IMG/VR virus record: IMGVR_UViG_3300035187_002824
Location: 4,659 to 68,658 of that record
DNA from: a virus
DNA: 64,000 nucleotides
Reading direction: 5' to 3' (one strand)
Each line of letters starts with the position of its first letter. Position 1 is the stretch's first letter. The position numbers and the translations under genes are program-made. The notes beneath the pieces were generated by a model that saw nothing but the letters and a program-made list of their open reading frames with translations, was not told where the DNA came from and made no database searches. Shown piece by piece: positions 889 through 51,700 of the stretch.

Positions 889-1179
889 ATGGCACTATTG
901 GAAGTTTACAAAGTTGTGGAAGTCAAAGGAGACGAAGGCTTCAAGGATAGCGTGAAGTATAAAGTTGAGGTAGATGTTATCGACACTGTCGACATCAAGT
1001 CAGCTCGTATCTTCCGCCCATCGAAGAAGCATGCTGAATCCGGTATCCGTTCAGAGATGATACGTATCTATTTTAAAACCGGTGGAGAGATGACTATCCT
1101 AGAGAAATGGGAATCATTCAGTCAAAGAGCAAATGTCGTTAAAGCGCCAGCCCCAATCAAAGAAGTCGCAAAGGATTAA
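889..1179 (+). CDS. hypothetical protein
   Basis: 96-aa ORF with A-rich upstream region, in operon. Confidence 0.6.
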   Translation: MALLEVYKVVEVKGDEGFKDSVKYKVEVDVIDTVDIKSARIFRPSKKHAESGIRSEMIRIYFKTGGEMTILEKWESFSQRANVVKAPAPIKEVAKD

Positions 1180-1498
1180 TGCTGAGCGCCGGAATATATC
1201 CGGTGTATACAATGATCCAATCGTTTCATCAGCAGAGATCAAGAGAATAATTGTATCCAAGATTATTGAATATGATCTTGATCCAAGACTATTGTCTGTT
1301 GCCATAGGTCTTGATGAGACAAAGCTCAGCAATCTTTACCTCAAGAAGAAGAAGCCCATGAGGACACCAAACCTATCCTCATATGAGATAATCAATCTCG
1401 CTTCGATACTTGGTGTTCAAATAAAAATTAATCTGTATTTGAAACCTTCTGAAGAAATCAACGTTGAAGAACTTAAAAGGCAATATGGAAAAGCCTAA
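1133..1498 (+). CDS. putative HTH DNA-binding protein
   Basis: Helical LSVAIGLDETKLSNL ... IINLASILGV, XRE-like pattern. Confidence 0.45.
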   Translation: MSLKRQPQSKKSQRINAERRNISGVYNDPIVSSAEIKRIIVSKIIEYDLDPRLLSVAIGLDETKLSNLYLKKKKPMRTPNLSSYEIINLASILGVQIKINLYLKPSEEINVEELKRQYGKA

Positions 1499-1715
1499 GC
1501 TAGTGAGATCGAAATCGGATGAGGCAACGCTTGAGACTATTACAAACAGGTTAAGCGAGCTGAGTATCGATGTGCATCAGATTGAAATAACAGATAACAG
1601 AACTGCAGTTGCTCGCGCTCTAAGCAAGTGCAGGACATTGAAAGCTGAAGTAGACTTATTCTACGCCAGATTAAAAGTTGAGCGAGACAGATTAGCAAAC
1701 CTTAAAAAACAATAA
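1485..1715 (+). CDS. small coiled-coil hypothetical protein
   Basis: ATG at 1485 (MEKPKL), tightly packed with neighbours. Confidence 0.55.
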   Translation: MEKPKLVRSKSDEATLETITNRLSELSIDVHQIEITDNRTAVARALSKCRTLKAEVDLFYARLKVERDRLANLKKQ

Positions 1716-1718
1716 AGT

Positions 1719-2255
1719 ATGTCAAGAAGAGGCTCTATGCAGCAAGTCGGTTCCGGCGCAGACTGGAATCCAAAGAAAAATGAAGACGGAACAGACCGCG
1801 TGTTTGATCCAAAGAACCCACCTGCAATCGAGGGGTGGTACCTTGGTGGTGTACCTAACCAAGGGAAGGATGGTAACAGTACATTGCATTCAATGTTGTG
1901 TAGCCATGTTGATGGCACTGATCATCCAAAAGGTAAGGAGGTATCGATCAACTTCTGGGGATCACATGTGCTCGATGATCAACTCTCGAAGATCCGTCCG
2001 GGTGTATTCGCTGCGATCGAATACGAGGGTGTAAAGCAACCTACAACAAAAGGCGGCCGTTCGTACAACTCTTACAAAGTGTTTAAGGATGAGAAAGACT
2101 TCCGCCCTGAACTCGTAGGAGGGGCTCCGGTAGCACCAGCTCAGGCACCTGCACAAAACGTTGCAGCTGCACCTGTAGCACAAGCACCATCTCCAAGCGC
2201 AGCTGCTCCGGTAGCAAACGTTATACCAGATGATACAGACGATCTCCCATTCTAA
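1719..2255 (+). CDS. single-stranded DNA-binding protein (phage OB-fold type)
   Basis: Beta-rich core, Ala/Pro/Gln linker and acidic C-terminal DDTDDLPF tail typical of SSBs. Confidence 0.7.
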   Translation: MSRRGSMQQVGSGADWNPKKNEDGTDRVFDPKNPPAIEGWYLGGVPNQGKDGNSTLHSMLCSHVDGTDHPKGKEVSINFWGSHVLDDQLSKIRPGVFAAIEYEGVKQPTTKGGRSYNSYKVFKDEKDFRPELVGGAPVAPAQAPAQNVAAAPVAQAPSPSAAAPVANVIPDDTDDLPF

Positions 2256-2274
2256 ACCAAACAAGTTACAAACG

Positions 2275-2301
2275 AAAAGCCTGGGCTAGTTCCAGGCTTT
2301 T
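2275..2301. terminator. intrinsic terminator, potentially bidirectional
   Basis: AAAAGCCTGG-gctagtt-CCAGGCTTTT. Confidence 0.75.
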
Positions 2302-2316
2302 AAATTCCATCTAGTT

Positions 2317-2622
2317 ATGAAAAAAGAAATGATCGTATCGTGCGATAACAACGAGAAAGATTTGACTGAGTTGTTTGACTTTATCTGGAGTAAGACTACT
2401 CATGATGCCAGTGACAACAAGAAGAAGTACTTGAATAATGGAGTTGCAAATGCAAACAGTTTACTCCGGTTCTGCAACGACAAGAAGTTGCATGTTGAAT
2501 TCAACAGTGAGGTTGCTCCTGTTGTTGTTCACTACTCTGAAGATGTTGATGAGGCTTTCGAGAAGACACCTGGTGTTGACAAGGAAGATCTTGATGACTC
2601 ACTCCCTTTTGAAATAGGTTAA
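2317..2622 (+). CDS. hypothetical protein, last + strand gene before the convergence point
   Basis: 101-aa ORF with acidic DDSLPF-like tail; stop overlaps the stop of the opposing gene. Confidence 0.6.
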   Translation: MKKEMIVSCDNNEKDLTELFDFIWSKTTHDASDNKKKYLNNGVANANSLLRFCNDKKLHVEFNSEVAPVVVHYSEDVDEAFEKTPGVDKEDLDDSLPFEIG

Positions 2623-2825
2623 TCCTCATCCTTTTTAGAGGTACCATTCTTGATGGCCAGCAGTTCTTCGAACCTGGCCATTCCTTTTTTTATCTCCGAC
2701 TCACCATACGCTTCTTCTTTGTATGAGTGATTCATGTCGTAAGTCCCGGTTCTTTCTACCTCACAGAATGATATTACGATACCGCGATCCTTCGCATAAA
2801 CACTTAAGTTTTCAATCATTGACAT
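2619..2825 (-). CDS. hypothetical protein
   Basis: 68-aa ORF directly downstream of the endolysin. Confidence 0.55.
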   Translation of the reverse strand: MSMIENLSVYAKDRGIVISFCEVERTGTYDMNHSYKEEAYGESEIKKGMARFEELLAIKNGTSKKDED

Positions 2826-2828
2826 AGG

Positions 2829-3302
2829 TTAGTCATTTAGATGGTTGACAAATATTACTCCTGCTTTAGAGTATGCACGCTTGCGCTTGTATACGCCATC
2901 GCCATTTGATTGGCTGCCAGCAATACCGGCAGATGTATTCCCTTCGATGGAGTAGAATTCTTTTCTTGAGTCATCAACCCATCCAATGAAGATACCGGTA
3001 TGATCCATCTTCTTGTCCTTGTTGAAGTCGAACAATACAATGTCACCGGCTTTTGGATTCTCAGTTAATAAACCTTTCTTCCTCCAGAAGTTGTATGCTG
3101 ATGGACAGTAGTGGTATCCTTTAGGTGAGTCGATCTTTCCAAGAGGTAATCCGGCTTTATCGTACACGAACGATACAAACATGGCGCACCATGCAAGACC
3201 ATCCATGCCGTACCATTTACCGAAAATGTTTTTGTTTCCGGCAGATTCTTTATAGCCAACATGATGTTCGGCAACGGAGATTATATCAGCCCTGGTTCCC
3301 AT
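2829..3302 (-). CDS. CHAP-domain endolysin
   Basis: AWCAMFVS (catalytic Cys), AGDIVLF, DHTGIF (His), SIEGNT. Confidence 0.9.
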   Translation of the reverse strand: MGTRADIISVAEHHVGYKESAGNKNIFGKWYGMDGLAWCAMFVSFVYDKAGLPLGKIDSPKGYHYCPSAYNFWRKKGLLTENPKAGDIVLFDFNKDKKMDHTGIFIGWVDDSRKEFYSIEGNTSAGIAGSQSNGDGVYKRKRAYSKAGVIFVNHLND

Positions 3303-3495
3303 CCTTGTTTCTTTTTAATCGTGGTTGAATATATGTTTTGAATACGTATTGACCAAGCATACCACAGAAGCCACCTATAATACCGTATAAGCCAACCTCA
3401 AAGATATGCCATCCGTATTCGTATACTGTCTTGAAGACTGAGAGTAGCACGCCACCGGCGAACCCAACTACTTCTGGTGTATGGTCATGAGTCAT
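3286..3495 (-). CDS. putative holin
   Basis: 69 aa, two hydrophobic segments, basic C-terminus, overlaps endolysin start. Confidence 0.6.
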   Translation of the reverse strand: MTHDHTPEVVGFAGGVLLSVFKTVYEYGWHIFEVGLYGIIGGFCGMLGQYVFKTYIQPRLKRNKDGNQG

Positions 3496-3499
3496 GTGG

Positions 3500-3507
3500 C
3501 AAAGTTA
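3500..3507 (-). promoter_or_regulatory. Bacteroidota-type -7 promoter element TAACTTTG
   Basis: Matches TAnnTTTG, 4 nt before the holin ATG. Confidence 0.6.
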
Positions 3508-3526
3508 ATGAAAAAATATAAACAAT

Positions 3527-3549
3527 ACGGGCTCCTTTCGAGAGCCCGT
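3527..3549 (-). terminator. hairpin terminator
   Basis: ACGGGCTC-ctttcga-GAGCCCGT followed by T-rich sequence on the minus strand. Confidence 0.55.
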
Positions 3550-3574
3550 TAAATCGTTTTAGAATGTAGTTTCC

Positions 3575-4003
3575 TTACGGAAGGTCAGTCCAAGGGCGTT
3601 GTTGCTTCTCGTAGCCAGCGATGTATTCTGCTTGAGCCTGCAGATACTCTTCTCTTGCTGTTCCGGTAAGTGTTGTTTCAACACCATGAGAAACTTTAGC
3701 TACAGCATTCTGGATGGTGAATCCAATTGTGATGTCGTAGTTGTTTCCTCCGGTAGGGACAAGTGAGAATGTATTACTTCTCGATGTATCCTTGGTTACA
3801 AAGATAGGATCGTTGTCTTTAGCTGAGTTCTCAACGTCATCAGCATAGTTTTGGAAGAAGTCATTGAAATCTTGAGATCCAAACTCAAGAGTTGACATCA
3901 CCGGGTAAACGTACTGTACTGATACGTTCACGTCGAATTCAACATCCATTTGGATAGGTACAACAGGATCTCCTTCTTGTGTTACAGTGTAGTTAACTGA
4001 CAT
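3575..4003 (-). CDS. hypothetical virion-associated protein
   Basis: Likely start MSVNYTV at 4003 (A-rich leader); the longer start in the ORF track overlaps the upstream gene. Confidence 0.6.
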   Translation of the reverse strand: MSVNYTVTQEGDPVVPIQMDVEFDVNVSVQYVYPVMSTLEFGSQDFNDFFQNYADDVENSAKDNDPIFVTKDTSRSNTFSLVPTGGNNYDITIGFTIQNAVAKVSHGVETTLTGTAREEYLQAQAEYIAGYEKQQRPWTDLP

Positions 4004-4025
4004 ATTTTTGTTTTTAAATTTACGA

Positions 4026-5309
4026 TTAGGTGTATGAAATATTAACAGCAACTTGGTTAGCTGGAATAGCACCAGTGTCTGTATGAGCAATACCAGTAGT
4101 AATAGCGTAAGCAATACCGGAAGATAAACGTATTCCAAAAGGTCCTCCATTTATTTGAATTGTATCGTTGGCTGGAATCATAATCGTCTTAGCAGGTGTG
4201 TCTGAAGCAAGGACTGGTGCAGCATTCTTATTGTACAGCTTGAAGTATACTGGTGATGCTCCGTTGTTGCTAAGAGTGATCTCATTAATACTTGCAGCAG
4301 TAGCTTTAACAGACGTTAAGTTTGTTGAGTTTGCACCTATAACATTGTGTTGTGTAGAAGCACCCTGACCTGTTTGCGGAACGTTTGTTATAACTTGGTT
4401 TGATCCAAGAGTGATAGCTGCAGCTGTAACATTCAATCGTGCAGCTGTATTTTGTTGTACGTTAAGTCTCGTAGACATCCATGGCACTTGAGAGAACGTG
4501 GTATTAACCCTTACGTTACCTCCAGTGAATCCTGTTGATACGCGTATACGAACATACCTTGATTGCACAGCGCCTGTAAATACCCTGTTGGAGTTTGCTG
4601 CAATTGTTATTGCCGCAATGTTTGGATCTGAACCTAAAACGGATTCTTCAAATACCGGCCATGGAATACCGGTAGTGATGGTATTATCATTTGTCTGTTC
4701 AAAGATAATTGCCCCGGCAGATATACCAGCGGAACCTATGATTGAAACAGAGAATGAATTGAAGTTACGCACATCGAACCAACCGTTTACTACATTGGTA
4801 AGTAGATCTGTGTTGACGGCTGTTATTGTAGGTGAATCTACCAGAACTTTCTTCGATAAGTTCACTGGGGCAGCAGAGTTTCCGTCTGAATAACCAAGGA
4901 CTGGAAGTTTTGCTTCAATAGCTTCAAGACCAGATACAACACTTGATGTATCGCCAGCTCCACAATTCGCTTTAATAGCATCTTGTATATCTGTTGCCGC
5001 TTTCTTCAAGCCTGCAAGGTTAGGTGTCCATGTAGCTTGATTGGTTACATCTTGGATATCGAAATCCAAACGAGCAACATTACCTTGTCCATCAGTGAAG
5101 TTGATCGTTAATTTAAGCAGGTCATTCCAATGGTATCCGGAGTTGGGGAGAGATCTGTAGTTCGGGAAGTACATCGGTTCAACACTCTTGATGTTACAAA
5201 CCGAGAACACGTAGTTATGCTGACCAGTTGATGTTGGTGCAGCTCCTGTATTTTCAATTACGATAGTATTACCATCGATCACTACTGTCTTTTGTCTGTT
5301 CAGAACCAT
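4026..5309 (-). CDS. putative structural/tail-appendage protein
   Basis: 427 aa, Thr/Asn/Ala-rich beta-type sequence; the C-terminal VYFKLYNKNAAP..GIAYAIT domain looks like a common phage virion domain. Confidence 0.55.
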   Translation of the reverse strand: MVLNRQKTVVIDGNTIVIENTGAAPTSTGQHNYVFSVCNIKSVEPMYFPNYRSLPNSGYHWNDLLKLTINFTDGQGNVARLDFDIQDVTNQATWTPNLAGLKKAATDIQDAIKANCGAGDTSSVVSGLEAIEAKLPVLGYSDGNSAAPVNLSKKVLVDSPTITAVNTDLLTNVVNGWFDVRNFNSFSVSIIGSAGISAGAIIFEQTNDNTITTGIPWPVFEESVLGSDPNIAAITIAANSNRVFTGAVQSRYVRIRVSTGFTGGNVRVNTTFSQVPWMSTRLNVQQNTAARLNVTAAAITLGSNQVITNVPQTGQGASTQHNVIGANSTNLTSVKATAASINEITLSNNGASPVYFKLYNKNAAPVLASDTPAKTIMIPANDTIQINGGPFGIRLSSGIAYAITTGIAHTDTGAIPANQVAVNISYT

Positions 5310-10079: not shown

Positions 10080-13000
10080 TTAATATAATTTCGTCACTTG
10101 CGGTGGTTCAGGATCTGATTCTCGAACCATGATAGCGTCATTGAATTCATTGCCTTGGTCGATAACGGAGTTCTTGCCCATCCATAATTGCATGAGTGCT
10201 TTCCGGCGGAACCTTGAGAATATCTTATTCAAATACTCTTGAGCCTGTGTATCAGACATTGTAGCTATCTTGTCCAAACCGGTGTCAAGCAGGAATTGCT
10301 TAGCCTCTGTACCTGACTGCTTAATAATATCCCAGTATTGGTCATCGGTAATCTTTGTGCCATCAGGAAGTTCCTGCCCCTTGTTGTAATCAGGAATGAA
10401 CAGTCCTCTCTTTATGAGTGGAGTATACACGGGGTGTTCCTTAACCTCTTGAGAGAATCTATCCCCGTACTTTATCGGTTCGCCAAGTGCATTCAGTTTT
10501 TCTCCGGAAGCCCTTCTTACAAATGGAATGTTCGCAGCAATCATGGATAGAAGATCATCTCTTCTGTACACATTACTGTCTGTCATCCGGTCGATATTGG
10601 ATAACAATCCTTTCCAAGGAATGAATCCGGAAAGAGGTCTTGTTAAATTACCTACAGTTTTCTCAAATGCATTCATGTCACCTTTGCTATCAACAAGCCC
10701 AGAGAGGAACCCATTAATACCGGTTAAGTATGATTGCTCAAGCATTCCTGACACAGATCTCTGAAGGACAAATGCTGACTCAGTCAAGATGTCCGATTCA
10801 TTCTGATCACTCCATCTTCTGTGGTCTGCTGTATTCCCGGCGAAAGAAAGCACGGCGAACAATGGTGAGAACTGGTATGAGTAGTACTTGTCACCAATCT
10901 TGATTGAATACGGAAGCCACCCGGTTTCTCTTAACTGAGCTTGCTTATCCCAATCGGTAGGACCTTTACCATAGATTTTAAATCCTGAGTCATCATCATC
11001 ATCATAAGCCAATGCTACCGCAGTCAGTAGTGTTGAACCTACAACTACCTTCAAAGCGGATCTTGCCTGCTCTTCTCTTTCATTTTCCCTCCTAACTCCA
11101 GGTATTCCAAATGGGGTGTACCCAAGCATTTCATTGAAGACGTTGGCAACAACTTTAGTGAATGGAACCACAAGTCTTAATGCAGGCATCTTCTTCACTC
11201 CGTTGTTTATGAGCTCAGCTACTATACCAAGAACACCTTGGGGTTTGTAGTTATATGTGAATTTACGACCGTAGTTTTTAGCTCGTTCAATGTAGTGAGC
11301 GTCTACCTTATTCTCCCATATCTCCCAAGCTCTACGATATGTCATAGCTCTTTTCTTAGTTGGAGAATAGTTTTCGCCCATGTACTTCATATCCGACTCA
11401 ACATCTTTTGTTGCCTCGGCAATTGTTTCACTCCATTCTTTCTTGGTGTACCCCATTTTTTCGTTAACGAAATCATTGAGGGCTTTCCCGGAAAGACCTT
11501 TATTCCTTCCTTCCATGTGAACGATTTCGTAAAGCTTAACAGCCTCTGCTCCAGAGAAGAATATCTCATCAGTAGCAGCCATAAAACGTCCAACGTATTT
11601 CAGGTAATTCAATGGGTTTATAGATCCTCCTTTATATCGAACATCTTCAAGAGGATTCACAACATTCTCTATACCGGTAAGATCGGATCGTATTGTAGAT
11701 GACGGTCCGTAAGCAATTGTTGATGCAGCTTCAGATACACCTTTTGTACCTACACCAGTAGCAAAAGCTTTCCATATCGACACAGCTCTCTTCATGTCAG
11801 GATATGTCAATACTTTACTCTTACCTACTTTTATTCCCGGGATGTTTGATGCTTCGCTTTTTAATCTGGGAGTTAATGCAAGTATGGAATTGATAGGCAT
11901 CTCAACAAGAGACTTAATCAAGTTTGCATTGAAGTTTAGTTTCTGTGTATCAATAGATGATAATGTGTTAGCATACCACATAGACCACATCAAGTCAGAT
12001 GGTGGTACCGGTATTTTGTTCTTGGCATCTTTAGATCCATATACAGAATAATTGTACATGGACTTCATGATCTCAATAGCTACTTTCCTCTTGGCTGCAT
12101 CGGTCTTAAGATTCTTCAATTTCTCTTGAAGAGATTCTATGTATGACACGAAGTCTTTATCGGGATCTTTTATACCGTATTCCTTCTTGATTATGTTTTC
12201 AATTTCATCCCTAGTCATCAATGAGCCATCACCTAGAATGTCATCTATAGCCTTCTTTAGCTTACGATTAACAACTGGAGCGTTATCACTTACTACTTTT
12301 GAAGCGTCATTCTTTTGAGTTGTAACTTTGTCGACAACATCTTTGGCTATTTTAGAAGCAACATCTTTTGACAGACCGTAATCTTTTGCTATTGTTTCTA
12401 CAAGCTTATCGGTAACACCGTCTTTAAGAATTGAATTCAAAGTATTTGATAACTCTTCTTTAGATTTTTCCGGCGATTGCTTAGCTGGCTTATCAACTTG
12501 ATTCTGTACAGCTTCATCAATTGTTTTTGGCAGACTCTTGATGACGTTGTCCATTGATTTCTCATACAGAGAAATGAATTCATTTATCTTCTCACGATTC
12601 TTTTCTATGTTAGATCTAATCTTATTGTTCTGAACATTCATCAAAGCAAGGAATTGCTTTGGAGAAAACTCATTCAGTATTTTCAACGCATCAACACCAC
12701 GACCAAGCTCTGTAGCAAACTTCATCATGAAGTTTGTAATCTCTACTGAACGCTCTCTTACTCTGTCTGCAGAAACTTGCTCGCCTTTAGACTCAAAGTC
12801 TTTAGCCATTTCTTCTGATGACTTAACGATCATTGATGCGAGAGTAATCCTTACAGCAGCATCAAGACCATTACGCTTATTCATAGCAATAGTAGTAGCA
12901 ACGTCTACGCCAAACTTATCTATGATGTTCTTAGCTTCTTGCTCGTTTATAGATCTGCTTCTCTGGTAGTATGTCTCAACTTCTTTAACAGCTTCCGCGG

Positions 13001-16000
13001 CTTGTTCTGTCAACTCTTTTTCATTTGACAATAATCTTTCCGCTGTTTTTCTTTTCGCAGTTCTAGTGCCTTCATCTTCGATGTTTGAGAATTCAGGATC
13101 TGCTACTTTCTCAAGTTCAGCTTTTATGAAATTCTTCATATCGTTCACAGCCTTCTCCCTTGCTTGTTCTGGAAGAGACTGGAAGTATTCTGTAGTCTGA
13201 AAGAATCCAATTGCATTCGCCACAGCCTGTGCTACTGATCCGGATGTTTCTATTGTTTTAGCTGCGAGCTCAATCATACCATCCCATGCTTTAAGCAGTA
13301 GCTTGTTAGCTCCGGCTGCACCAGCCATATCTTTCATGAATTGCTCCGGCATCTTTAATTTCCGGGTAGCGTCTGCAACCTTCTTGAATTTATCTTTGAT
13401 GGAAGTAGATTCTTCTTTAGTCTGCTTCTCTGCAAACATTCTGTCAAACACTTCTCTTACATCTTCATCAATCTTTACATTGATTGGAGATCCTTTAAGT
13501 GCAGAATAAATTTCAGTGAACCAATCCTTCATTCTATCGAACACTGACTTCAATTCAGGAGATGGAGCTTTACCATCTCTCATGTATCTCTCACCTGCAC
13601 GAGCAACTTTCTCTTCAGCTTTAACGTCCCATACTCCATCTTTAACTCCAGCCCATTGCTCAAGAGTTTTAATGTCCTCATCTATCTGTGACTTCAATTC
13701 TGGAGTTGATGCGTTATCTCTTGCTTCATAAATGTCACGTCTGAAGCCATGGAACAATTCATGGATGAGTGTGCTTATGTCTGCAGATTCAAACGCATGT
13801 ATGATGTATGCAGAGTTATCACCAAACTCTATAGCACCTTTCTCTCCTTGGGAAAGTTTCTTTGTAATGTCGACAGTTCTGTTCTCTGCAGGTTTACCCT
13901 GCATCTTTCTGTTTACAGTATTGATCGACATGGTCCATCCGCCGTTCTCTGCTTTAGAGTCAAGAACGATTCTGTCTCCCGGATTCATATCGATTGTTTC
14001 AATCATGGTTTCTTCCGGAGATATCATCTCTCTTTCTTCGTCAGAAAGTAATGATCTTTCAGATACATTTCTTGCCTCAACCTCGCCTGATGACTTGGTG
14101 TATATTTTTTTTGCAGTAGGTTTTGAATATCCAGCTGCAACAAAATCTTCCGGCGCTGACCCTGGTTGAAAACCTTCTTGCTTCTGGATAAAATGTTGTA
14201 CTTCGTGACGCAACGTGAGATACATATCAGCTATAGATCCAGCGCGTACAGCAATCTTGTTGTTCGATAGATCAGCATAACCCAGAGCTTTGGCTTCTGC
14301 GAGCTCTGAGTTCTTTGAATCCTGTATTTCTATTTCAATATCCTTAAGGAATGGATGTGATTCATAAAGCTCATTCCATTCAAGGACTTCAGAAAGTTTC
14401 TTTGTTCCCGGAACAACATCACCGTTATCATTCGATGATGGCTTGAATACAACATTGTCTTGACCTGGAACTTCTGTCTTCCATTTGTCATCAGCTCTGT
14501 CATAGTACCATCCGGTTTTTTGCCACACACTAGTAGCATCAGATCCTGAATCCTGAAGCTTTTTAGCTGAAGATAAATCAGTCTTCTGCTTAGGTGTAAG
14601 GTTGGATCCTTCTCCTACGAACTGGTATAATACTGGTTGGTCAACCAGATCTTCCGGTGAAGATTCCTGGGCAGACTTATCTGCATACCATTCGTCAATA
14701 TCTTTTCCGGTTTGTTTGGACCATACTTTTGCTCTTGCCTCGGCAAGTGATAATGCTGCACTTATCTGATCAGTGTCAGCTTTACCTTCAAAAGCTACAT
14801 TGACAGATTGTTCAAACGCTTCTCTGTTTGGTGATGGAACTTTTACTGTTTCCGGTTTTATTTCTTCTTGAACAGGTTGTTGCACTTGTTCTTCTTTGGC
14901 GAGCTCTGCTTGTACCTCCGGCTTTGATGCAGTCTTTGATACAGCATTAGCAACTGAGTTCACAACATTGCCTATTACTTCTGCGACAATAGGGTCTACT
15001 TTCTTCTTCTGTTCCTCAGTGAGTGTTTTATACTTTGACTTGAATACATCCATTGATGAGTTGTATCCAAATGCAGCACCCATAACAAATGATCCGACAA
15101 GGAACTCTTGCCAAGATTCCATGTCAGGAAACTTTTCCTTTACAGCATCGATGAACGATTGACCATTCTCTGTTTCAAGATAAATGTTCGTGAGCTCTTC
15201 ACCTAATTCCTGTCCGGTCTCACCAATACCACGAGATACTACTGCACCGGTTTTATCAACAGAAGAAGCAATAGCTTTCACCCCTCTATCTGTTAATAGT
15301 TTCTTTGTATACATGGCACCTTTCTCAGTAGCAGCAACACTCAGTGCTTTACCAATAAACGGCTCAACAGCTTGACCTAAAATTGATCCGGCAAAACCGG
15401 CTGCGAAGTTAAGTTGATCTTCATTATTTGTGAAGATATTCCCAGCCATCTCAAATGAATACGCTTCATCAAGAGCCTTTCCTATTGCTTTAGCAATCTT
15501 GCTGTTTGAGTTTACAAAAGAGGAAACATATGCAGCTTCAAGAGATGTTGCTTTCCCGGCTTTATCTATGGCGGACAATCCTTTCTGAAGCGATCCTAAA
15601 GCTGGTACATTTCTTGTCATCAGCAATGGTATCATTATACCACCTGTAGTTCCTGCGAGCTCACCCAATCTATCAGCATCAAAGTCTGTAACCCATGAAG
15701 CTGGATTGTACCACTTGAAATCAGATTGCATTAAAGGATCAGGAGTGGATTGCTCTATGTTTGCGCCAAGCTGAGCTTGGTTTATATTCTCGTTCTTTAC
15801 CCCGATGTCATTCAACATAGACACGACAAGAGCATTCCTGTCTGAGTATTTTGTACTCTTTGTTCCTTCAACATTTGGAGATATCATTGACAGAGCAGAC
15901 TCTGTTGCGCTGGCAGCAAAACCAGGTTCATTACCAAATCCGGAAATGGATGAGTTGAGGAAGAACAATGGAGCCATCACCTGAAGATCTCTCTTCAATC

Positions 16001-17324
16001 TGTAGTAACGATCTCTGTCATCATCTTTGAGTGCATCTCCTGCAATAGGGATCTGTGAAAGGAAATCCTTTGGAGCATCCATAGCTCCGCCGTAACTCTG
16101 AGACAACGTAATATATTCGTCATACATTGTTTTGTACCACAGTTCGAACTTCTCTTTCTCAGACAATCCAGATGGCAATGCATCAAGAAGTTTGATTGAG
16201 GAATCAGAAACGGTATTCTTTACTTCATCAATAGTAGGGATAGCGGAGAAGAAGTCTCCGCGCATAGCTTTGTATTCGTCGAGTTTATTCTCGTAGAAAT
16301 CCCTCTGCGATGGCGTGAGATTTCTTTCGAGCATCTTCTCCATTTGAGATACAGCAGCATCAACATTCTGATATCTCTTGTTACGGAATTCATTATACTG
16401 CTTCTCGTATTCTCGGTACTTCTGTCCAAAGTAATTATCATCCGAATATCCAGGAACAGACTTGAGTCTTTCCATTTCTGATTTAAGGAAATATTCTTTC
16501 GACACAAGATTCATGTAGTCCTGATTGATACCATCGCCACCGAAGAAAGATACTCCAGTGTTCGGATCTACATCTTGATTAGTAGCAAGAGATCTAGCCA
16601 TCTCACGTTTTTGAGATGACATATATTGATCAACAGTTTTACCTTGAGCCTCAGCCTTCTTCTTTTCTACAGCTGTAGTCAATGCAAAATTATAGAAGTT
16701 GTCATACGTTGATTTATTCTGACGAAAGAACTCTGACTGGTTTATACCTTGCGATGCGGTCTGATCAGCACCGGTTGATACATCAGGATTCAATGGGTCA
16801 TAAACTTCTTCTGTAGCTTGTTGTTGAGGCAATAGCTTATTAAGCTCACTGAGCATTTTCTTTTGCTGATCATCGAGATAATAATCTGCAGGCTTGATGT
16901 TTGAAGCAATTGACTTTACATCAAACGGAGATTGCTCGGCACCTTGTTGTTCAACACCTGCTCCGAAAGCTTCATTGAATAAAGAAGATACTTCAGTTTC
17001 TGTTGTTGGAGTTGCTGGTGTTCCCTCCCAGACTTGCTGAAAATTTGATTGGACCGATTGTTGCGCTGAAGGAGCAGGTTGCCCATTTACTGAAAACGTT
17101 GCTCCATATCCGCCACCATTTTCTGCTGTCACCTCCACCGGTGTGGCTTGCTGTATTGCTGGTGAAGGTTCCGCTTTTTTTAATGGCACACCTCCTGCAG
17201 GGATCTCATCATCAATCTCACCGGCAGCAGATGACGTTGGTGCAACATTAACTTTTGCTGTAGTACTTTTTAATGGAACTCCACCTGCCGGGATTTCATC
17301 ATCCAATTCATTTCCGTTGCTCAT
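10080..17324 (-). CDS. giant internal virion/ejection protein, 'large polyvalent protein' type with zincin-like HExxH motifs
   Basis: 2414 aa; WQKTGWYY..DDKWKTE (LPD23-like), HEVQHFIQKQEGF, IHELFH, C-terminal GWLPYSIKIGDKYYSY (LPD38-like); last of three ejection-type genes. Confidence 0.7.
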   Translation of the reverse strand: MSNGNELDDEIPAGGVPLKSTTAKVNVAPTSSAAGEIDDEIPAGGVPLKKAEPSPAIQQATPVEVTAENGGGYGATFSVNGQPAPSAQQSVQSNFQQVWEGTPATPTTETEVSSLFNEAFGAGVEQQGAEQSPFDVKSIASNIKPADYYLDDQQKKMLSELNKLLPQQQATEEVYDPLNPDVSTGADQTASQGINQSEFFRQNKSTYDNFYNFALTTAVEKKKAEAQGKTVDQYMSSQKREMARSLATNQDVDPNTGVSFFGGDGINQDYMNLVSKEYFLKSEMERLKSVPGYSDDNYFGQKYREYEKQYNEFRNKRYQNVDAAVSQMEKMLERNLTPSQRDFYENKLDEYKAMRGDFFSAIPTIDEVKNTVSDSSIKLLDALPSGLSEKEKFELWYKTMYDEYITLSQSYGGAMDAPKDFLSQIPIAGDALKDDDRDRYYRLKRDLQVMAPLFFLNSSISGFGNEPGFAASATESALSMISPNVEGTKSTKYSDRNALVVSMLNDIGVKNENINQAQLGANIEQSTPDPLMQSDFKWYNPASWVTDFDADRLGELAGTTGGIMIPLLMTRNVPALGSLQKGLSAIDKAGKATSLEAAYVSSFVNSNSKIAKAIGKALDEAYSFEMAGNIFTNNEDQLNFAAGFAGSILGQAVEPFIGKALSVAATEKGAMYTKKLLTDRGVKAIASSVDKTGAVVSRGIGETGQELGEELTNIYLETENGQSFIDAVKEKFPDMESWQEFLVGSFVMGAAFGYNSSMDVFKSKYKTLTEEQKKKVDPIVAEVIGNVVNSVANAVSKTASKPEVQAELAKEEQVQQPVQEEIKPETVKVPSPNREAFEQSVNVAFEGKADTDQISAALSLAEARAKVWSKQTGKDIDEWYADKSAQESSPEDLVDQPVLYQFVGEGSNLTPKQKTDLSSAKKLQDSGSDATSVWQKTGWYYDRADDKWKTEVPGQDNVVFKPSSNDNGDVVPGTKKLSEVLEWNELYESHPFLKDIEIEIQDSKNSELAEAKALGYADLSNNKIAVRAGSIADMYLTLRHEVQHFIQKQEGFQPGSAPEDFVAAGYSKPTAKKIYTKSSGEVEARNVSERSLLSDEEREMISPEETMIETIDMNPGDRIVLDSKAENGGWTMSINTVNRKMQGKPAENRTVDITKKLSQGEKGAIEFGDNSAYIIHAFESADISTLIHELFHGFRRDIYEARDNASTPELKSQIDEDIKTLEQWAGVKDGVWDVKAEEKVARAGERYMRDGKAPSPELKSVFDRMKDWFTEIYSALKGSPINVKIDEDVREVFDRMFAEKQTKEESTSIKDKFKKVADATRKLKMPEQFMKDMAGAAGANKLLLKAWDGMIELAAKTIETSGSVAQAVANAIGFFQTTEYFQSLPEQAREKAVNDMKNFIKAELEKVADPEFSNIEDEGTRTAKRKTAERLLSNEKELTEQAAEAVKEVETYYQRSRSINEQEAKNIIDKFGVDVATTIAMNKRNGLDAAVRITLASMIVKSSEEMAKDFESKGEQVSADRVRERSVEITNFMMKFATELGRGVDALKILNEFSPKQFLALMNVQNNKIRSNIEKNREKINEFISLYEKSMDNVIKSLPKTIDEAVQNQVDKPAKQSPEKSKEELSNTLNSILKDGVTDKLVETIAKDYGLSKDVASKIAKDVVDKVTTQKNDASKVVSDNAPVVNRKLKKAIDDILGDGSLMTRDEIENIIKKEYGIKDPDKDFVSYIESLQEKLKNLKTDAAKRKVAIEIMKSMYNYSVYGSKDAKNKIPVPPSDLMWSMWYANTLSSIDTQKLNFNANLIKSLVEMPINSILALTPRLKSEASNIPGIKVGKSKVLTYPDMKRAVSIWKAFATGVGTKGVSEAASTIAYGPSSTIRSDLTGIENVVNPLEDVRYKGGSINPLNYLKYVGRFMAATDEIFFSGAEAVKLYEIVHMEGRNKGLSGKALNDFVNEKMGYTKKEWSETIAEATKDVESDMKYMGENYSPTKKRAMTYRRAWEIWENKVDAHYIERAKNYGRKFTYNYKPQGVLGIVAELINNGVKKMPALRLVVPFTKVVANVFNEMLGYTPFGIPGVRRENEREEQARSALKVVVGSTLLTAVALAYDDDDDSGFKIYGKGPTDWDKQAQLRETGWLPYSIKIGDKYYSYQFSPLFAVLSFAGNTADHRRWSDQNESDILTESAFVLQRSVSGMLEQSYLTGINGFLSGLVDSKGDMNAFEKTVGNLTRPLSGFIPWKGLLSNIDRMTDSNVYRRDDLLSMIAANIPFVRRASGEKLNALGEPIKYGDRFSQEVKEHPVYTPLIKRGLFIPDYNKGQELPDGTKITDDQYWDIIKQSGTEAKQFLLDTGLDKIATMSDTQAQEYLNKIFSRFRRKALMQLWMGKNSVIDQGNEFNDAIMVRESDPEPPQVTKLY

Positions 17325-35240: not shown

Positions 35241-36177
35241 TTTCAGTGTTTGATGCTTCAGTATCAGGAGCGTTCACCGGTCCTGGTTCACCAACTGGTA
35301 ATTCAGATTCCGGTTCATCGCTGGTTGAATCTTCTTCAACGTCGATAATGACAGGAGGCTCTGGTGTTTCGTCTGTTTTTGGTTCTCCTCCCATAAGTGG
35401 GCCAAGGAGCTCCCCTCCTGATTCACTCAGCTTCTCTTCGAATTCATCAAAAGAATCCTTCTCTTTATTGAAGTCAAATGAATTACCAAGGTCTTTTACC
35501 CAGTCTTTAACTGAGTCGATTTCAGATTGGATCGAATCAAAGTCGATATCCAAAGGCTTGGCATCCGTTCCGAGGATAATCTTCTTACCAAACGTCTCGT
35601 AGGTAAGTTTCGAGATCTCAGCAAGAACGCGGTTGGTAACCTGTTCTGTGACCGTAGCATGGATGCTTGCGGTTATTTTACCGGTGGCAGATGTGAGGTC
35701 TTTGTACTCTTGCTTTACTGCACCTCCTGATTCACCAAAAGCAGAGAAAGAAACTTCCTCGTAAATCTTCTGGATCTTCATAACCGGTGTTTCAAAAAGG
35801 TCATTGATCTCTTTTGAGATGGATGTGTAATGCGCTGAAAGTTTTGCGCGGCCAATGAGAAGCTCATTTCGAATGGCTTCGATTTGTGATAAGAAATTGA
35901 TTGCTTGCATATAGTTGATTTTAAACCACTTATCTAAAGGACACTGCGATTGTAGGGACCGGCATTTGGCAGCAAGAGGGCAGCCACATTCAGAGCATTT
36001 GTATTCGCTCATACCTGTGTCTTCGAGTTTCCTTGTTATTGAATTGAATATGAATTTAGGTAAAAGCTTTGGCTTATCGCATTCACTGCAGATCTTAGCT
36101 CTTTCAATAGCTACTGCGTCTACCTGTTTATTGGGTATCGCATTGTTTTTCCAGCCTTCTATAATTTCTTTTACCAT
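35200..36177 (-). CDS. Zn-finger protein with acidic C-terminal tail
   Basis: ICSEC...CSECGCPLAAKCRS..SQCPLDKW; possible internal start MQAINF. Confidence 0.55.
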   Translation of the reverse strand: MVKEIIEGWKNNAIPNKQVDAVAIERAKICSECDKPKLLPKFIFNSITRKLEDTGMSEYKCSECGCPLAAKCRSLQSQCPLDKWFKINYMQAINFLSQIEAIRNELLIGRAKLSAHYTSISKEINDLFETPVMKIQKIYEEVSFSAFGESGGAVKQEYKDLTSATGKITASIHATVTEQVTNRVLAEISKLTYETFGKKIILGTDAKPLDIDFDSIQSEIDSVKDWVKDLGNSFDFNKEKDSFDEFEEKLSESGGELLGPLMGGEPKTDETPEPPVIIDVEEDSTSDEPESELPVGEPGPVNAPDTEASNTESANAENTEASAEQ

Positions 36178-36189
36178 ACTTCCTTCCCG

Positions 36190-36465
36190 TTAGGGGTAAG
36201 CCCCTACTATGCCGGGGCCTACAAATTTGGGCCGATCAAGCTGCGATGCGGGTAGCACGCGTAGCGATCATGTTGACAGTGTTGTCAGTTATTTTTCAAT
36301 ACACTCTCCTATGCTCTTTCATCAAATGTCAAATCCAGTCGGCCCCAATGTTAAATTTTTAACAACCGATTTGTGTGCGCATATGCGTAACCGGTTTTAT
36401 TGGTGGAGCCGGAGGGGATCGAACCCTCGTCCAAAAGATTTCCAAACACAATCAACGAACGTATC
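36190..36465 (-). ncRNA. ssrA: circularly permuted two-piece tmRNA gene (acceptor piece 36465-36401, intervening segment 36400-36347, coding piece from 36346; 3' end approximate)
   Basis: GACGAGGGTTCGATCCCCTCCGGCTCCACCA lies upstream of GGGGCCGACTGGATTTGAC; 7-bp acceptor stem with G3.U; ATAACT resume context then DNTVNMIATRATRIAA*. Confidence 0.9.
36236..36286 (-). other. tmRNA tag reading frame (A)DNTVNMIATRATRIAA*
   Basis: GAC AAC ACT GTC AAC ATG ATC GCT ACG CGT GCT ACC CGC ATC GCA GCT TGA after AAAAATAACT; ends in Ala-Ala. Confidence 0.85.
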
Positions 36466-36469
36466 TGTG

Positions 36470-36477
36470 CAAATGTA
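36470..36477 (-). promoter_or_regulatory. tmRNA promoter -7 element TACATTTG
   Basis: TAnnTTTG 4 nt before the first paired base of the acceptor piece. Confidence 0.7.
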
Positions 36478-36489
36478 CGTTATGTTTTG

Positions 36490-36497
36490 TACTTTTG
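36490..36497 (+). promoter_or_regulatory. divergent -7 element TACTTTTG
   Basis: TAnnTTTG upstream of the ATG at 36519. Confidence 0.5.
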
Positions 36498-38122: not shown

Positions 38123-38229
38123 ACAATATTAAAAGAAAAGCCCCCGATTGCACAAACCACTAAAATGCTCTCGGGGGCTAGAAGAACCATTTGGTTCAGC
38201 GGGGGCTCTTAAAAGTGGTTAACTTTTTG

Positions 38230-38301
38230 TAGCGGGAGACGGATTCGAACCGCCGGCCTTCGAGTTATGAGCCCGACGAGCTACCGCTGCTCTATCCCGC
38301 T
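38230..38301 (-). tRNA. tRNA-Met(CAT), initiator-like, CCA not encoded
   Basis: AGCGGGA/TCCCGCT acceptor stem, GAGC..GGTA.GCTC D arm, TCGGG-CTCATAA-CTCGA anticodon arm, GGCGG-TTCGAAT-CCGTC T arm. Confidence 0.9.
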
Positions 38302-42663: not shown

Positions 42664-42978
42664 TTACCAAGTGATAGCTTTCACAGCCCACATCTGAGCT
42701 CCTTGAGCCTCGGTGATTGCAATTGAATACAATCGCTTTTTCTCCGGATCATCAGTTTGATTTCGCTTATCATTGAGGTCATCAATAATATGTGAGAATA
42801 ACGACTTCTGATAATCTACATCAGAGTTATTGCTTGGATTAAAAGATAACCCTACAGCCTTAGCTCCATAGCTTTGTGCTGGGATGTCATGTTGACGGCC
42901 TGCCTCTGCAGGTACTTCAGAACGGACACCGCGTTCTTCAATTTCTTGTCCTTCTTCTTCTTTTGTAACTTCACTCAT
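42664..42978 (-). CDS. Acb2/Tad1-like helical-hairpin protein (candidate cyclic-nucleotide sponge)
   Basis: VGLSFNPS...KRLYSIAITEAQGAQMWAVKAITW resembles the C-terminal R..S.AIT..E/Q.A.MW..KA helix of this group. Confidence 0.6.
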   Translation of the reverse strand: MSEVTKEEEGQEIEERGVRSEVPAEAGRQHDIPAQSYGAKAVGLSFNPSNNSDVDYQKSLFSHIIDDLNDKRNQTDDPEKKRLYSIAITEAQGAQMWAVKAITW

Positions 42979-47761: not shown

Positions 47762-48286
47762 TTAATTCTTTTTATGGTTTGTTAAATTTTTAACAATTAG
47801 TTCAGAAATCTCAACAATTTGTGAATAACTGAGATCCTGCCCATGTCGCTGGATAATACTTACCAGGGCATCAAGCACATCGGGGGATCCCTTACTTATG
47901 AACCTGTAAGGAAAAGAATACAAGCATTTCAATGTAACCTTATCGCTTATCCTTCTCTTAAACAGTTCATACACGCCGCTGCTCATTTCCGGGCGGAACC
48001 TTTCAGACGGATCGGTACACAACATCCACGGCCCAGGCATCATACTCGGAGGATAAAACATAAGGACTTTAGCGGGAATAACATACCCCTTCATCCCTAT
48101 AAGATCTACACCACCATTACGAGTTTCCATGGTCCGGACACCTGGTTGGATTGGATAATCCTCTGAGATATAGACAAGGTCACCAGGCTTGAAAGCAATA
48201 CCACTAAAAAGACCGTTGTAACAAACAGGATAGTGTAGCTCTCGGCGCCCATCAAAAAAAGTTTTATACATAATGTTCATACACAC
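47762..48286 (-). CDS. hypothetical protein, first gene of the leftward arm
   Basis: 174-aa ORF. Confidence 0.55.
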   Translation of the reverse strand: MCMNIMYKTFFDGRRELHYPVCYNGLFSGIAFKPGDLVYISEDYPIQPGVRTMETRNGGVDLIGMKGYVIPAKVLMFYPPSMMPGPWMLCTDPSERFRPEMSSGVYELFKRRISDKVTLKCLYSFPYRFISKGSPDVLDALVSIIQRHGQDLSYSQIVEISELIVKNLTNHKKN

Positions 48287-48575
48287 TTATACACCCGGCC
48301 CATAAAAAATGTTTCAATTTCCCAACAAAAGATTTTGACATACATAACTTCAACGATCTAACCTCTTCCCTGTTCAAGACACCAGAGCCTATACATAAAT
48401 CGATCATACCCACATAATAATGCCCAAATTTTCAATGTCAAGAATAAACCACTCACCCCTATATTCCAGAGTACGCTCGTAAAGAACATGGTCCAATGGG
48501 CTAAAGTGAGGTTTGGCCACCGGTGAAACACCAGTGTTTACTGGGAAAGTTGAAAAATGAGTAGTTGATCAGGAT

Positions 48576-48680
48576 CAATAGGTGAACTCATGGGGTCAAT
48601 AATTGAACACATTGCACCAATAGGTAGACTCAAGGAACCAATAGGTGAACTCACGGCGATAAGAAGCTAGCTCACGGCGC
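48576..48680. repeat. degenerate 21-bp tandem repeats (about 5 units), iteron-like
   Basis: CAATA at 48576, 48597, 48618, 48639; CAATAGGTGAACTCA twice; CTCACGGCG at 48650 and 48671. Confidence 0.8.
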
Positions 48681-48853
48681 TAAAAAGGTTGGTGTGGGAG
48701 GGGTACTGTATCCGTACAAACATCCCTCCCCTGTTTTCAGTCCCGAAACGTAACCCAAAGTTCAAAGCCCCCCGCCCTATTATCGAATAAGATTCCAGTA
48801 CACTAGGGTAGGGTAGGGGGTTGCCTTGTCAGTTATGACCTGACATATTGTCT

Positions 48854-48881
48854 ACTTAACATAATAAATATTATACAGGCA
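48854..48881 (-). other. dif-like XerC/XerD site
   Basis: TGCCTGTATAA-TATTTA-TTATGTTAAGT, 11-6-11 layout; XerD arm is 10/11 identical to TTATGTTAAAT. Confidence 0.75.
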
Positions 48882-49155
48882 ATCTAATAACGTTTCATGC
48901 ATGGGAAAAATTCGCGTATATATGGTATAAACTAAACGCCTGTTTACTAAACATTTAGGTGATGTTAAATATTTAACACTTGAAACCTTTTTCTGCAACA
49001 TCTACCCAATCCACCCCTTGCCCATGCATATTTTTACCCTATTTCCATACCCTTTATTAACAAATTAGACTCTATATATCAGCAAGTTACATTTAGTCGA
49101 TAGGTTATCAACACCATATTGTTAATATCAAGTTTGATTTTTTTTCTGCAAACTA

Positions 49156-49185
49156 TTGCAGATTAAAAAACCTTATCTATCTTTG
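49156..49185 (+). promoter_or_regulatory. host-type promoter of the rightward (early) arm
   Basis: TTG(C) ... TATCTTTG with Bacteroidota -33/-7 type spacing and AT-rich upstream sequence. Confidence 0.7.
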
Positions 49186-49218
49186 TCATGTCGATATGAT
49201 TAAACAACATAGAGATAA

Positions 49219-49246
49219 GGCCGAAAGGCTACCAGTTCTTTTACAT
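49219..49246 (+). promoter_or_regulatory. boxB/boxA-like antitermination signal
   Basis: GGCC-GAAA-GGCT hairpin followed by GTTCTTTTACAT. Confidence 0.5.
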
Positions 49247-49558
49247 GTACATACATTAAACACAGGGCAACAAGGTAGTTGTCCTAATGGGAAAGGTATG
49301 TACCAAAGGTAGATAACCCGATGGTGGGTGTACTTAACAGTTAACAGGCTTTACTAACCTGTTCCTTATCTTAACCTTTGTTTGTTCATTGACGTATTGT
49401 GTAAAGCCCCTAGATATATAGGAAAGTAGTTTTACCGGAGGTAATTCGGCCGTGACCATACACGGACTACATGGGTTAAAAAGGTTAAGCGGGTACAAGT
49501 CCGCTGAAATTATCCGTCGTTTACTACACCGAATGCAGGATATATTTAATAGACTTAA

Positions 49559-49574
49559 TGTTCCACGTGGAACA
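49559..49574. other. parS-like palindrome
   Basis: TGTTCCACGTGGAACA, perfect 16-bp palindrome matching the chromosomal parS consensus. Confidence 0.75.
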
Positions 49575-49710
49575 TTTAAAATATAGCAACGTTCCTGAAT
49601 GTTTGCAAACGTCACGGCAACAGGGTTACCAAAGTGAAACGTTACCCCTTAATTAGTTGAAATAAGACTATAGAATCGAATTCGATTAAGGGGGCTAAAA
49701 ATCCATAAAC

Positions 49711-50103
49711 ATGAAAAATGCAATCATTACCGTATTTCAGGCCTCTACAGGTCTTGAAATCAAAAAAGAGTACAAAGGTGAATTCCTTACTTCAGAGGAG
49801 ACAAAGTCCAAAATTATTGGGTCTTCTCTTCATTCAGTTTTTTCCCTGCTCAAAGTTAGGCAAGAGACTGGTCAGAAAATCTTTAAACTTTCCGAATCAT
49901 TGGATATTTCCTTTGAGATGGATGGTGTTAAGATTTCCACCGCTGAGGTACGAGAATCATTAAAAGTACGTCTGAAACTTGGCAACAAGGCAAAACAGCA
50001 AAGAAAATTTGCTCAGACCTTTAAGGCCATTATTGACTATGCTTTGACAGATAATAAGTTTATGACCTTGGAAGAGGTTATCGAATCTATCCCTGCAGAG
50101 TAA
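49711..50103 (+). CDS. hypothetical early protein
   Basis: First rightward ORF, preceded by AAATCCA. Confidence 0.65.
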   Translation: MKNAIITVFQASTGLEIKKEYKGEFLTSEETKSKIIGSSLHSVFSLLKVRQETGQKIFKLSESLDISFEMDGVKISTAEVRESLKVRLKLGNKAKQQRKFAQTFKAIIDYALTDNKFMTLEEVIESIPAE

Positions 50104-50127
50104 TTACACTACCATCATTATTTTCCC

Positions 50128-50158
50128 CGCCCGAGGTATACCGCTTCGGGCTTTTTTA
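50128..50158 (+). terminator. intrinsic terminator
   Basis: GCCCGAGG-tataccg-CTTCGGGC-TTTTTT. Confidence 0.65.
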
Positions 50159-50178
50159 TTACCAAAAAACCACAGGTC

Positions 50179-50346
50179 ATGAAAAGTCAATTCATTTCCC
50201 CCGCCGTGCGCTCTGAAATTTCAACCATGCGCAAATATAAAGTCCGTAAACAACAAACGGATAAACACAACAGATACGTTTGGGCTGTTATCGCAGTGGC
50301 TACAATTGTGGCAATCGTATTGGACCAACTAGGCTTAATCGTATGA
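50179..50346 (+). CDS. small membrane protein (55 aa)
   Basis: Basic N-terminus then VWAVIAVATIVAIVL; read manually. Confidence 0.5.
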   Translation: MKSQFISPAVRSEISTMRKYKVRKQQTDKHNRYVWAVIAVATIVAIVLDQLGLIV

Positions 50347-51594: not shown

Positions 51595-51700
51595 GATGAG
51601 TTCGTCTAATGGTAGGACTGATCTATGATAGATCCTGATGCTGAGTTAGTCGGCACTGAAAGTTGAAACACTTATACGGGTTCGATTCCCGTACTCATCA
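51595..51700 (+). ncRNA. tRNA-like element B with multi-hairpin insert in place of the anticodon arm
   Basis: GATGAGT/ACTCATC, GTCTAATGGTAGGAC D arm, ACGGG-TTCGATT-CCCGT. Confidence 0.7.

Follow-up and report, generated by a model that had tools for sequence, protein, structure and literature searches.

Chromosome-type dif and parS sites in one non-coding region of a tailed phage without recognized integrase or partition genes: possible upkeep by host Xer and ParABS

The phage-plasmid P1 combines three maintenance sites with the proteins that act on them: the oriR iterons with RepA, parS with ParAB, and lox with Cre; these trans-acting proteins are P1's own, as is its repressor. The plasmid sites cer (ColE1) and psi (pSC101) require approximately 180 bp of accessory sequence, which binds PepA together with ArgR or ArcA. 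Multimers of such plasmids are resolved by the Xer recombinases of the host (PMC5357621). Phage phi29 has five parS sites, and segregation into the prespore involves the host protein Spo0J (PMC2731898); small single-stranded DNA prophages of Flavobacterium are flanked by dif, implying that they use XerC/D (PMC9719478). This report concerns a 1.2-kb non-coding region of a tailed phage genome, IMG/VR record IMGVR_UViG_3300035187_002824 (68,658 bp; G000), in which a dif-like site, a chromosomal-type parS palindrome, and iteron-like repeats lie together. The window analyzed is the 64,000-nucleotide stretch spanning bases 4659-68658 of the record, and coordinates are those of the window unless the genome is named. 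The record is rated complete, and a 127-bp overlap between its ends points to a circular assembly.

Mimicry of host chromosome sites by both phage sites is well supported by comparison with bacterial genomes, and a function of the sites in persistence is plausible by analogy with the systems above. The reading proposed is that host Xer and ParABS maintain the phage much as they would a plasmid, so that host-run resolution, with partition in some members of the lineage, would support persistence; it is advanced tentatively, with a confidence that stops a little short of even. The two sites are:

48851 to 48881 (approximate), plus strand: Xer-type dif mimic, TCTAC-TTAACATAA / TAAATA / TTAT-ACAGGCA, with its core at 48856-48874
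49557 to 49576, palindromic: host-type parS, the 20-bp perfect palindrome AATGTTCCACGTGGAACATT, with the first rightward gene (49711) 135 bp downstream

The dif mimic is the conserved core of the module, and parS is an accessory. Five complete genomes were compared, G000 included (65-75 kb, tailed; portal identity only 37-43%), and the exact pattern TTAACATAA-N6-TTAT occurs once in each of the five; it also occurs once in nine of 19 related records, always within large non-coding gaps. Shuffled genomes gave 12 matches to the core per 500. Nine aligned phage sites yield the lineage consensus tCTAy-TTAACATAA-tgtaaa-TTAT-mAgACA, and all nine have the layout of an Xer site, with inner inverted ATAA/TTAT, a 6-bp spacer, and extended arms. 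A near-identical site is found, nearly always in single copy, in 104 of 121 Flavobacteriaceae genomes, a host-family sample chosen as the family of one metagenomic bin; 27 of these sites give the consensus CTATTTtACATAA-TATAAA-TTATAGTaCA. The first arm of the phage sites is host-like in 9/9 and the second arm fits in 5/9, and the mimic is the top match to a Flavobacteriaceae position weight matrix (PWM) in each of the five phage genomes. The chromosomal dif-type site lies 47-52% of the genome from parS in all five single-contig genomes listing both, as expected for a dif at the terminus and a parS near the origin. One chromosomal contig of a Flavobacteriia bin, encoding MutL and a type IX secretion system protein, carries TCTAT-TTAACATAA-TATTAA-TTAT-GAGACA, in which the second arm is of the phage type. 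The first arm of the phage sites is also identical to the arm that is conserved in the dif motif of Vibrio (PMC12715192).

The parS palindrome was placed at 49559-49574 by the original prediction, and it is indeed exact there: the core TGTTCCACGTGGAACA is the center of the 20-bp palindrome, conforms to the 16-bp chromosomal-type pattern TGTTNCACGTGNAACA, and has no other match in the window or in the whole genome. No exact parS arose in 100 dinucleotide shuffles; with up to two mismatches allowed, a parS-like match appeared in 27 of the 100, so only the exact match carries meaning. Among the 121 Flavobacteriaceae genomes, 108 have exact consensus parS, with one to three copies each, and the reversed control pattern has none. 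TGTTCCACGTGGAACA is the commonest variant among the Flavobacteriaceae parS matches listed, and the phage site is identical to it at 16/16 positions, a match that speaks at the level of the clade only. ParB is encoded in all four of the parS-bearing Flavobacteriaceae genomes checked, at a distance from parS. The site is unchanged in L043, a metagenome contig with 94% identity to the region and the only one found to encode a close relative of the 130-aa protein flanking it. The palindrome also contains the sole CACGTG of G000 (49564-49569; one observed against approximately 11 expected), and the keeping of this one copy amid avoidance of the hexamer suggests that the site has been retained despite selection.

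Palindromic hexamers are scarce in G000 more widely: TCTAGA is absent (21.5 expected), ACTAGT occurs once (21.5), and CGCGCG is absent (5.6), a depletion that looks like restriction-site avoidance. CACGTG is absent from the relative G004.

Co-occurrence among relatives bears out the prediction in part. The dif mimic is present in all five complete genomes; parS is present in two, G000 and G010, and in both it shares the non-coding region of the dif mimic. G010, at 39% portal identity, has GGTTCCACGTGGAACA (core GTTCCACGTGGAAC) and two further GTGGAACA half-sites in the equivalent region, and this cluster is 40 bp from its dif mimic. A pattern search found no parS in the remaining three complete relatives; two candidates in G006, each at two mismatches, were at control level and were dropped. 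The three-part module originally proposed consists of real features, with the conserved core being dif, not parS.

That no parA, parB, or xer gene lies in the window had been noted from the sequence, and this holds for the whole genome. None was recognized with PHROGs (89 window ORFs) or Pfam (61 + 21 ORFs), and in six-frame searches ParB_N and Phage_integrase (tyrosine recombinase) were each found in none of the five complete phage genomes and the XerD model had no match anywhere in G000. The phage replicon therefore holds no self-contained parA-parB-parS cassette, as no ParB is on it. No phage protein able to act at the palindrome or the dif-like site was found, and G000 and G010 have no protein common to them alone. 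By comparison, each of three metagenome-assembled genomes (MAGs) holding related phage contigs encodes ParB and XerD-like proteins. Host-type sites with no cognate phage proteins probably mean that the phage borrows host machinery and is kept like a small chromosome.

The region in which the sites lie (48532-49710) is at the cumulative GC-skew minimum and separates diverging gene blocks, with a nucleotide-metabolism block running leftward from approximately 48.5 kb and many small genes running rightward from 49,711. It is non-coding, because its one sizeable open reading frame (ORF; 49334-49615, minus strand, 93 aa) is disrupted in L043 by indels of two, one, and one bases. The repeats that the prediction had put beside parS and the dif-like site are in this same region, together with several other elements:

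48576 to 48660, plus strand: four iteron-like direct repeats CAATAGGTGAACTCA, a putative initiator-binding part of an origin
48689 to 48735, no strand assigned: G-rich element TTGGTGTGGGAGGGGTACTGTA with the 8-bp inverted repeat GGGAGGGG...CCCTCCCC
48850 to 49250, no strand assigned: AT-rich stretch (GC 0.27-0.37), a possible unwinding region
49178 to 49185, plus strand: rightward promoter-like motif TATCTTTG
49190 to 49710, plus strand: predicted structured leader or non-coding RNA of approximately 520 nt, starting just past TATCTTTG
49304 to 49311, minus strand: facing promoter-like motif TACCTTTG

The copies of CAATAGGTGAACTCA start at 48576, 48597, 48618, and 48639, an exact 21-bp spacing, with 0, 3, 2, and 0 mismatches; the window has a single additional match at up to three mismatches, on the minus strand at 51597. 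Iteron-type origins have at least three helically phased direct repeats of 17-22 bp beside an AT-rich stretch; here an AT-rich stretch is 200 bp from the four copies, and the repeats may be the iterons of a replication origin. The AT-rich stretch contains a second perfect 16-bp palindrome, TGTTAAATATTTAACA (48963-48978), with outer TGTT/AACA as in parS. There is no cluster of DnaA boxes: the window has 25 matches against approximately 20 expected, one of them (49105) within the AT-rich stretch. Portions of the G-rich element are shared with the corresponding regions of G004 (TTGGTGTGGG / GGGGTACTGTA) and G010 (GGGAGGGGTA). G010 also has an identical TATCTTTG, which we take to be a Bacteroidota-type -7 promoter motif (consensus TAnnTTTG), directly upstream of its first rightward gene. 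The translations of the first two rightward ORFs past the G010 control region (L025, 2017-2624) look helix-turn-helix-like by eye, and the two may form a switch.

Replication genes of G000 recognized with Pfam (genome positions 976-4938) encode an SNF2 helicase, a beta-clamp-like protein, and a BT4734-type primase; the primase-like gene is located elsewhere in the genome, away from the iterons. No DNA polymerase was recognized among G000 ORFs in the Pfam scans.

The hosts of G000 are probably Bacteroidota, Flavobacteriia or their neighbors; this is indicated by the -7 motifs, phylum-typical protein families, and bin labels. Bins with related phage contigs are labeled Flavobacteriia, Kordia, and Ignavibacteriae, and lake-water metagenomes hold DNA near-identical to G000. 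Among 50,697 phage records, neither the region (blastn) nor the portal (tblastn) had a match, and the two proteins flanking the non-coding region retrieved no relatives from IMG/VR.

In the mechanism proposed, the region would serve as a control and maintenance region composed of a phage-specific origin-like part and copies of two host-chromosome sites. The circularized genome would be replicated by the host replisome, aided by the phage primase, helicase, and clamp-like proteins. Host XerC/XerD, acting at the dif mimic, would resolve genome dimers to monomers in the way known from the cer and psi sites of plasmids; host ParB would load at parS and, with ParA, partition phage DNA to daughter cells, and ParB at parS may also damp the adjacent early operon. 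The outcome would be a carrier or pseudolysogenic state without integrase or par genes. The original prediction of a module using only host proteins survives for partition and resolution; for replication it is unlikely, since the phage has primase, helicase, and clamp-like genes of its own.

Several observations weigh against plasmid-like upkeep by host Xer and ParABS. The second arm of the G000 dif mimic, TTATACAGGCA, is degenerate, and the PWM score of 7.7 for this site is inside the shuffle range (mean 3.7, maximum 15.9), the matrix being that of Flavobacteriaceae. A search of a 401-genome Bacteroidota sample for a host dif with the G000 second arm returned only control-like noise (matches in 74 genomes). 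The presence of parS in only two of the five complete genomes means that partition is not essential to the lineage. With regard to replication, PHROGs and Pfam recognized no Rep-family initiator near the iterons, and the equivalent regions of relatives have only weak two-copy repeats spaced 20-22 bp apart. No repressor or lysogeny-control gene was recognized in G000, in which one ORF has a weak HTH_3 match below the Pfam cut-off. In the collections searched, no isolate genome contained the lineage, and a stable carrier state might predict otherwise. Finally, the assignment of phage contigs to MAGs, on which the comparison of phage and host spacers below depends, is uncertain, and the parS palindrome would be a hairpin of a putative covarying leader, such that a role in RNA is possible.

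Similar sites were sought on other viral contigs. The exact parS TGTTCCACGTGGAACA occurs in at least 121 IMG/VR stretches (loci L114-L234), against three for the reversed control. The GC of the flanks, 0.32-0.58, implies that the hosts are probably diverse. Among 42 parS-bearing contigs of at least 20 kb, chosen from the first 80 listed, only two have a ParB_N gene, and among the complete contigs one of 15. No open frame crosses 216 nt in 58 of 116 distinct viral parS stretches, compared with 558 of 2000 random stretches; as these controls come from other genomes, the non-coding bias of parS is a modest hint. Pairing with dif does not extend beyond the G000 lineage in a convincing way: TTNACATAA-N6-TTAT is present in seven of the 42 contigs, in six of them as one near-identical sequence whose spacer is G+C-rich and whose flanks are not host-like, and the candidates reduce to one unconvincing lineage.

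The short dif core is found across IMG/VR in at least 120 stretches against at least 117 for the mirrored control, and such lower bounds allow no claim of enrichment. Full-length mimics, CTAyTTAACATAA-N6-TTATnnnACA, make up 23 of 124 matches against four of 117 for the control, among the matches listed (loci L252-L371), and the viral contigs that carry them reach 188 kb. Again among the matches listed, 20 of the 22 contigs with full-length mimics lack a tyrosine recombinase, including all six complete ones, and only four of the 22 have even a weak portal match to the G000 lineage. It is possible, though doubtful, that several integrase-less tailed phage lineages of Bacteroidota live as host-maintained mini-chromosomes, between the lytic and the lysogenic modes. 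In this conjecture, with which both surveys of viral contigs are in line, such phages would leave dimer resolution to host Xer by way of a conserved dif mimic, and some of them would leave partition to host ParABS by way of an exact parS.

The sites could instead serve integration, with the dif mimic as an attP at which host XerC/D insert the 68-kb genome into the chromosomal dif; the phage would then be temperate without an integrase, in the manner of integrative mobile elements exploiting Xer (IMEX). The two-arm layout with a 6-bp spacer is that of host dif, no integrase is present, and Xer integration has been inferred for the small single-stranded DNA phages of Flavobacterium (PMC9719478); in Vibrio, inoviruses and double jelly-roll phages are known to integrate by this route (PMC12715192). 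One sampled Flavobacteriaceae genome (G068, contig C23, 38028-42579) has two same-strand dif-like sites 4.5 kb apart, a pair that resembles the ends of a small PhiCjT23-like element integrated through Xer. No integrated copy of the G000 lineage was found, however: a species-level genome collection yielded three free-looking MAG contigs with portal-related DNA, in which phage-like ORFs lie on both sides of the dif mimic, and 401 Flavobacteriaceae genomes gave one match, the MAG already known. In four lake metagenomes, contigs cross the dif site with no joints or loose ends, although sequence variants are present. Complete Xer exchange requires matching spacers. The nine phage sites have six spacer variants, and in both MAG pairs that could be compared the phage and host spacers are unlike (TAATTA and TATAAA in one, TAATAA and TATTAA in the other), which favors recombination of phage with phage, that is, dimer resolution. 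A parS carried to the terminus would presumably also be awkward for the host. Thus no copy integrated at a chromosomal dif and flanked by dif was seen in this limited sample. Sampling was one genome per species and rare lysogens could escape it; with this thin sampling and uncertain binning, integration retains some weight but is unlikely.

Use of the sites during the lytic cycle only, with Xer resolving or processing circular replication intermediates and no persistent state, is likewise improbable. So is the corresponding view of parS, by which many copies would titrate or relocate ParB and SMC, disturbing host segregation or positioning phage DNA. The genome does look virulent, with no repressor, integrase, or par genes recognized; the lineage is missing from isolate genomes, the sites are within an early control region, and host-type parS in the absence of ParB is common in viral contigs (40 of the 42 above). 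Phages that package from concatemers have no obvious gain from dimer resolution, which speaks against a purely lytic role. Recombination at chromosomal dif is coupled by FtsK to cell division (PMC5357621), a better fit to dividing carrier cells, and in phi29, the sole precedent studied of a lytic phage with host-type parS, the purpose is to persist in the spore (PMC2731898).

A third explanation, in which the sites are targets of phage-coded factors or work in RNA and resemble host sites incidentally, is very improbable. The palindrome would then be an operator or hairpin and the dif-like site would bind a phage protein, for instance a terminase or initiator. A promoter-like motif precedes the palindrome and the first gene follows it, and the palindrome pairs as a hairpin within the predicted fold of the leader. 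That fold has z = -3.14, with none of 100 shuffles folding as well; relative to L043, none of its 143 pairs is broken, and there are seven compensatory and seven one-sided changes, against 0-1 compensatory changes in slid controls. As only two sequences were available and the structure was derived from them, this covariation is suggestive, not proof; Rfam had no match at threshold over 48000-50200 (best, twister-P3 with 21.7 bits, the cut-off being 39.9). No family could be recognized for most early proteins, so a DNA-binding protein of a new kind is possible among them. On the other hand, the palindrome equals the dominant parS of the host family at every one of its 16 positions, the three half-sites of G010 are direct as well as inverted, unlike what a hairpin would demand, and the parS-bearing pair of genomes lacks an exclusively common protein. 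The dif mimic follows host dif in both arms and in spacer layout, and the full-length mimics listed above recur on contigs with a portal that is scarcely or not at all similar. Chance matches in an AT-rich non-coding region, for which there is little to say beyond the frequency of loose parS matches in shuffles and the shortness of the AT-rich dif core, too short for specificity in megabase-sized genomes or across IMG/VR, are effectively refuted by site conservation, host match, and shuffles, namely the exact parS in none of 100, the dif core once in each complete genome against 12 in 500, and both sites together in the equivalent region of G010 despite its distant portal.

The remainder of the genome is that of a tailed phage. 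The structural genes are on the minus strand and, by PHROGs and Pfam, encode an SU10-type capsid protein, portal, large terminase, tail fibers, and a large polyvalent protein:

10080 to 17324, minus strand: 2,414-aa protein with an LPD23 polyvalent-protein domain

An Acb2/Tad1 hairpin domain (Pfam E = 3.1e-8) makes a 104-aa protein (42664-42978, minus strand) a candidate sponge for immune signaling nucleotides. ARAGORN identified two tRNA-Met genes (38229-38301, minus strand; 58381-58455, plus strand) and a tmRNA-like gene (36145-36493, minus strand) that it flags with an asterisk and that partly overlaps the end of an ORF.

If short cis-acting sites suffice for upkeep by the host, many phages of lakes and oceans that are called virulent could persist in dividing cells. 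Lifestyle is normally predicted from genes (integrase, repressor, parAB), and a host-maintained lifestyle, if true, would escape such prediction and would alter how infection dynamics and host ranges are interpreted, along with virus-to-host ratios from metagenomes. Both the dif mimic and this variant of parS are clade-specific and so also provide a simple gene-free marker of the host, and the sites offer an experimental entry to the unstudied Xer/dif and ParABS systems of Bacteroidota. The combination of a dif mimic and parS in integrase-less tailed phages appears to be new, although each has separate precedents: searches of open-access text found no paper on tailed phages that lack an integrase and conserve a dif mimic, none on a Bacteroidota phage with host-type parS, and none on parS, dif, and iterons in one region.

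Each known system accounts for part of what is seen at this locus. As in P1, one phage genome carries sites for three maintenance functions, here a putative iteron origin with a candidate centromere and a candidate site of dimer resolution; unlike P1, the phage has no partition or resolution proteins, and no repressor was recognized. IMEX (CTXphi-type inoviruses, double jelly-roll phages, and PhiCjT23-like phages) are likewise integrase-less with a dif-like site (PMC12715192; PMC9719478), and PhiCjT23 indicates that the Xer/dif route is in use by phages of the same host clade (PMC9719478); they are, in these accounts, small (6-16 kb), non-tailed, integrated, and flanked by dif, whereas the phages described here are tailed, have genomes of 65-75 kb, and gave no integrated copy in the genomes and metagenomes searched. 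The resemblance to cer of ColE1 and psi of pSC101 is that of a replicon without a recombinase that carries a dif-like site, the plasmids relying on host XerC/D (PMC5357621); in contrast to cer and psi, no accessory sequence of their kind is recognizable here, and the element is a 68-kb tailed phage. Phages of the phi29 family (Bacillus subtilis) also carry chromosomal-type parS without ParB, and in phi29 the host machinery moves the genome (PMC2731898). The phi29 genome is linear and protein-primed, its host belongs to the Firmicutes, its parS sites relate to entrapment in the spore, and no dif is described for it in that account; here, the assembly is circular, the phage is apparently one of Bacteroidota, and a single parS, or a cluster in G010, is found beside a dif mimic and iterons.

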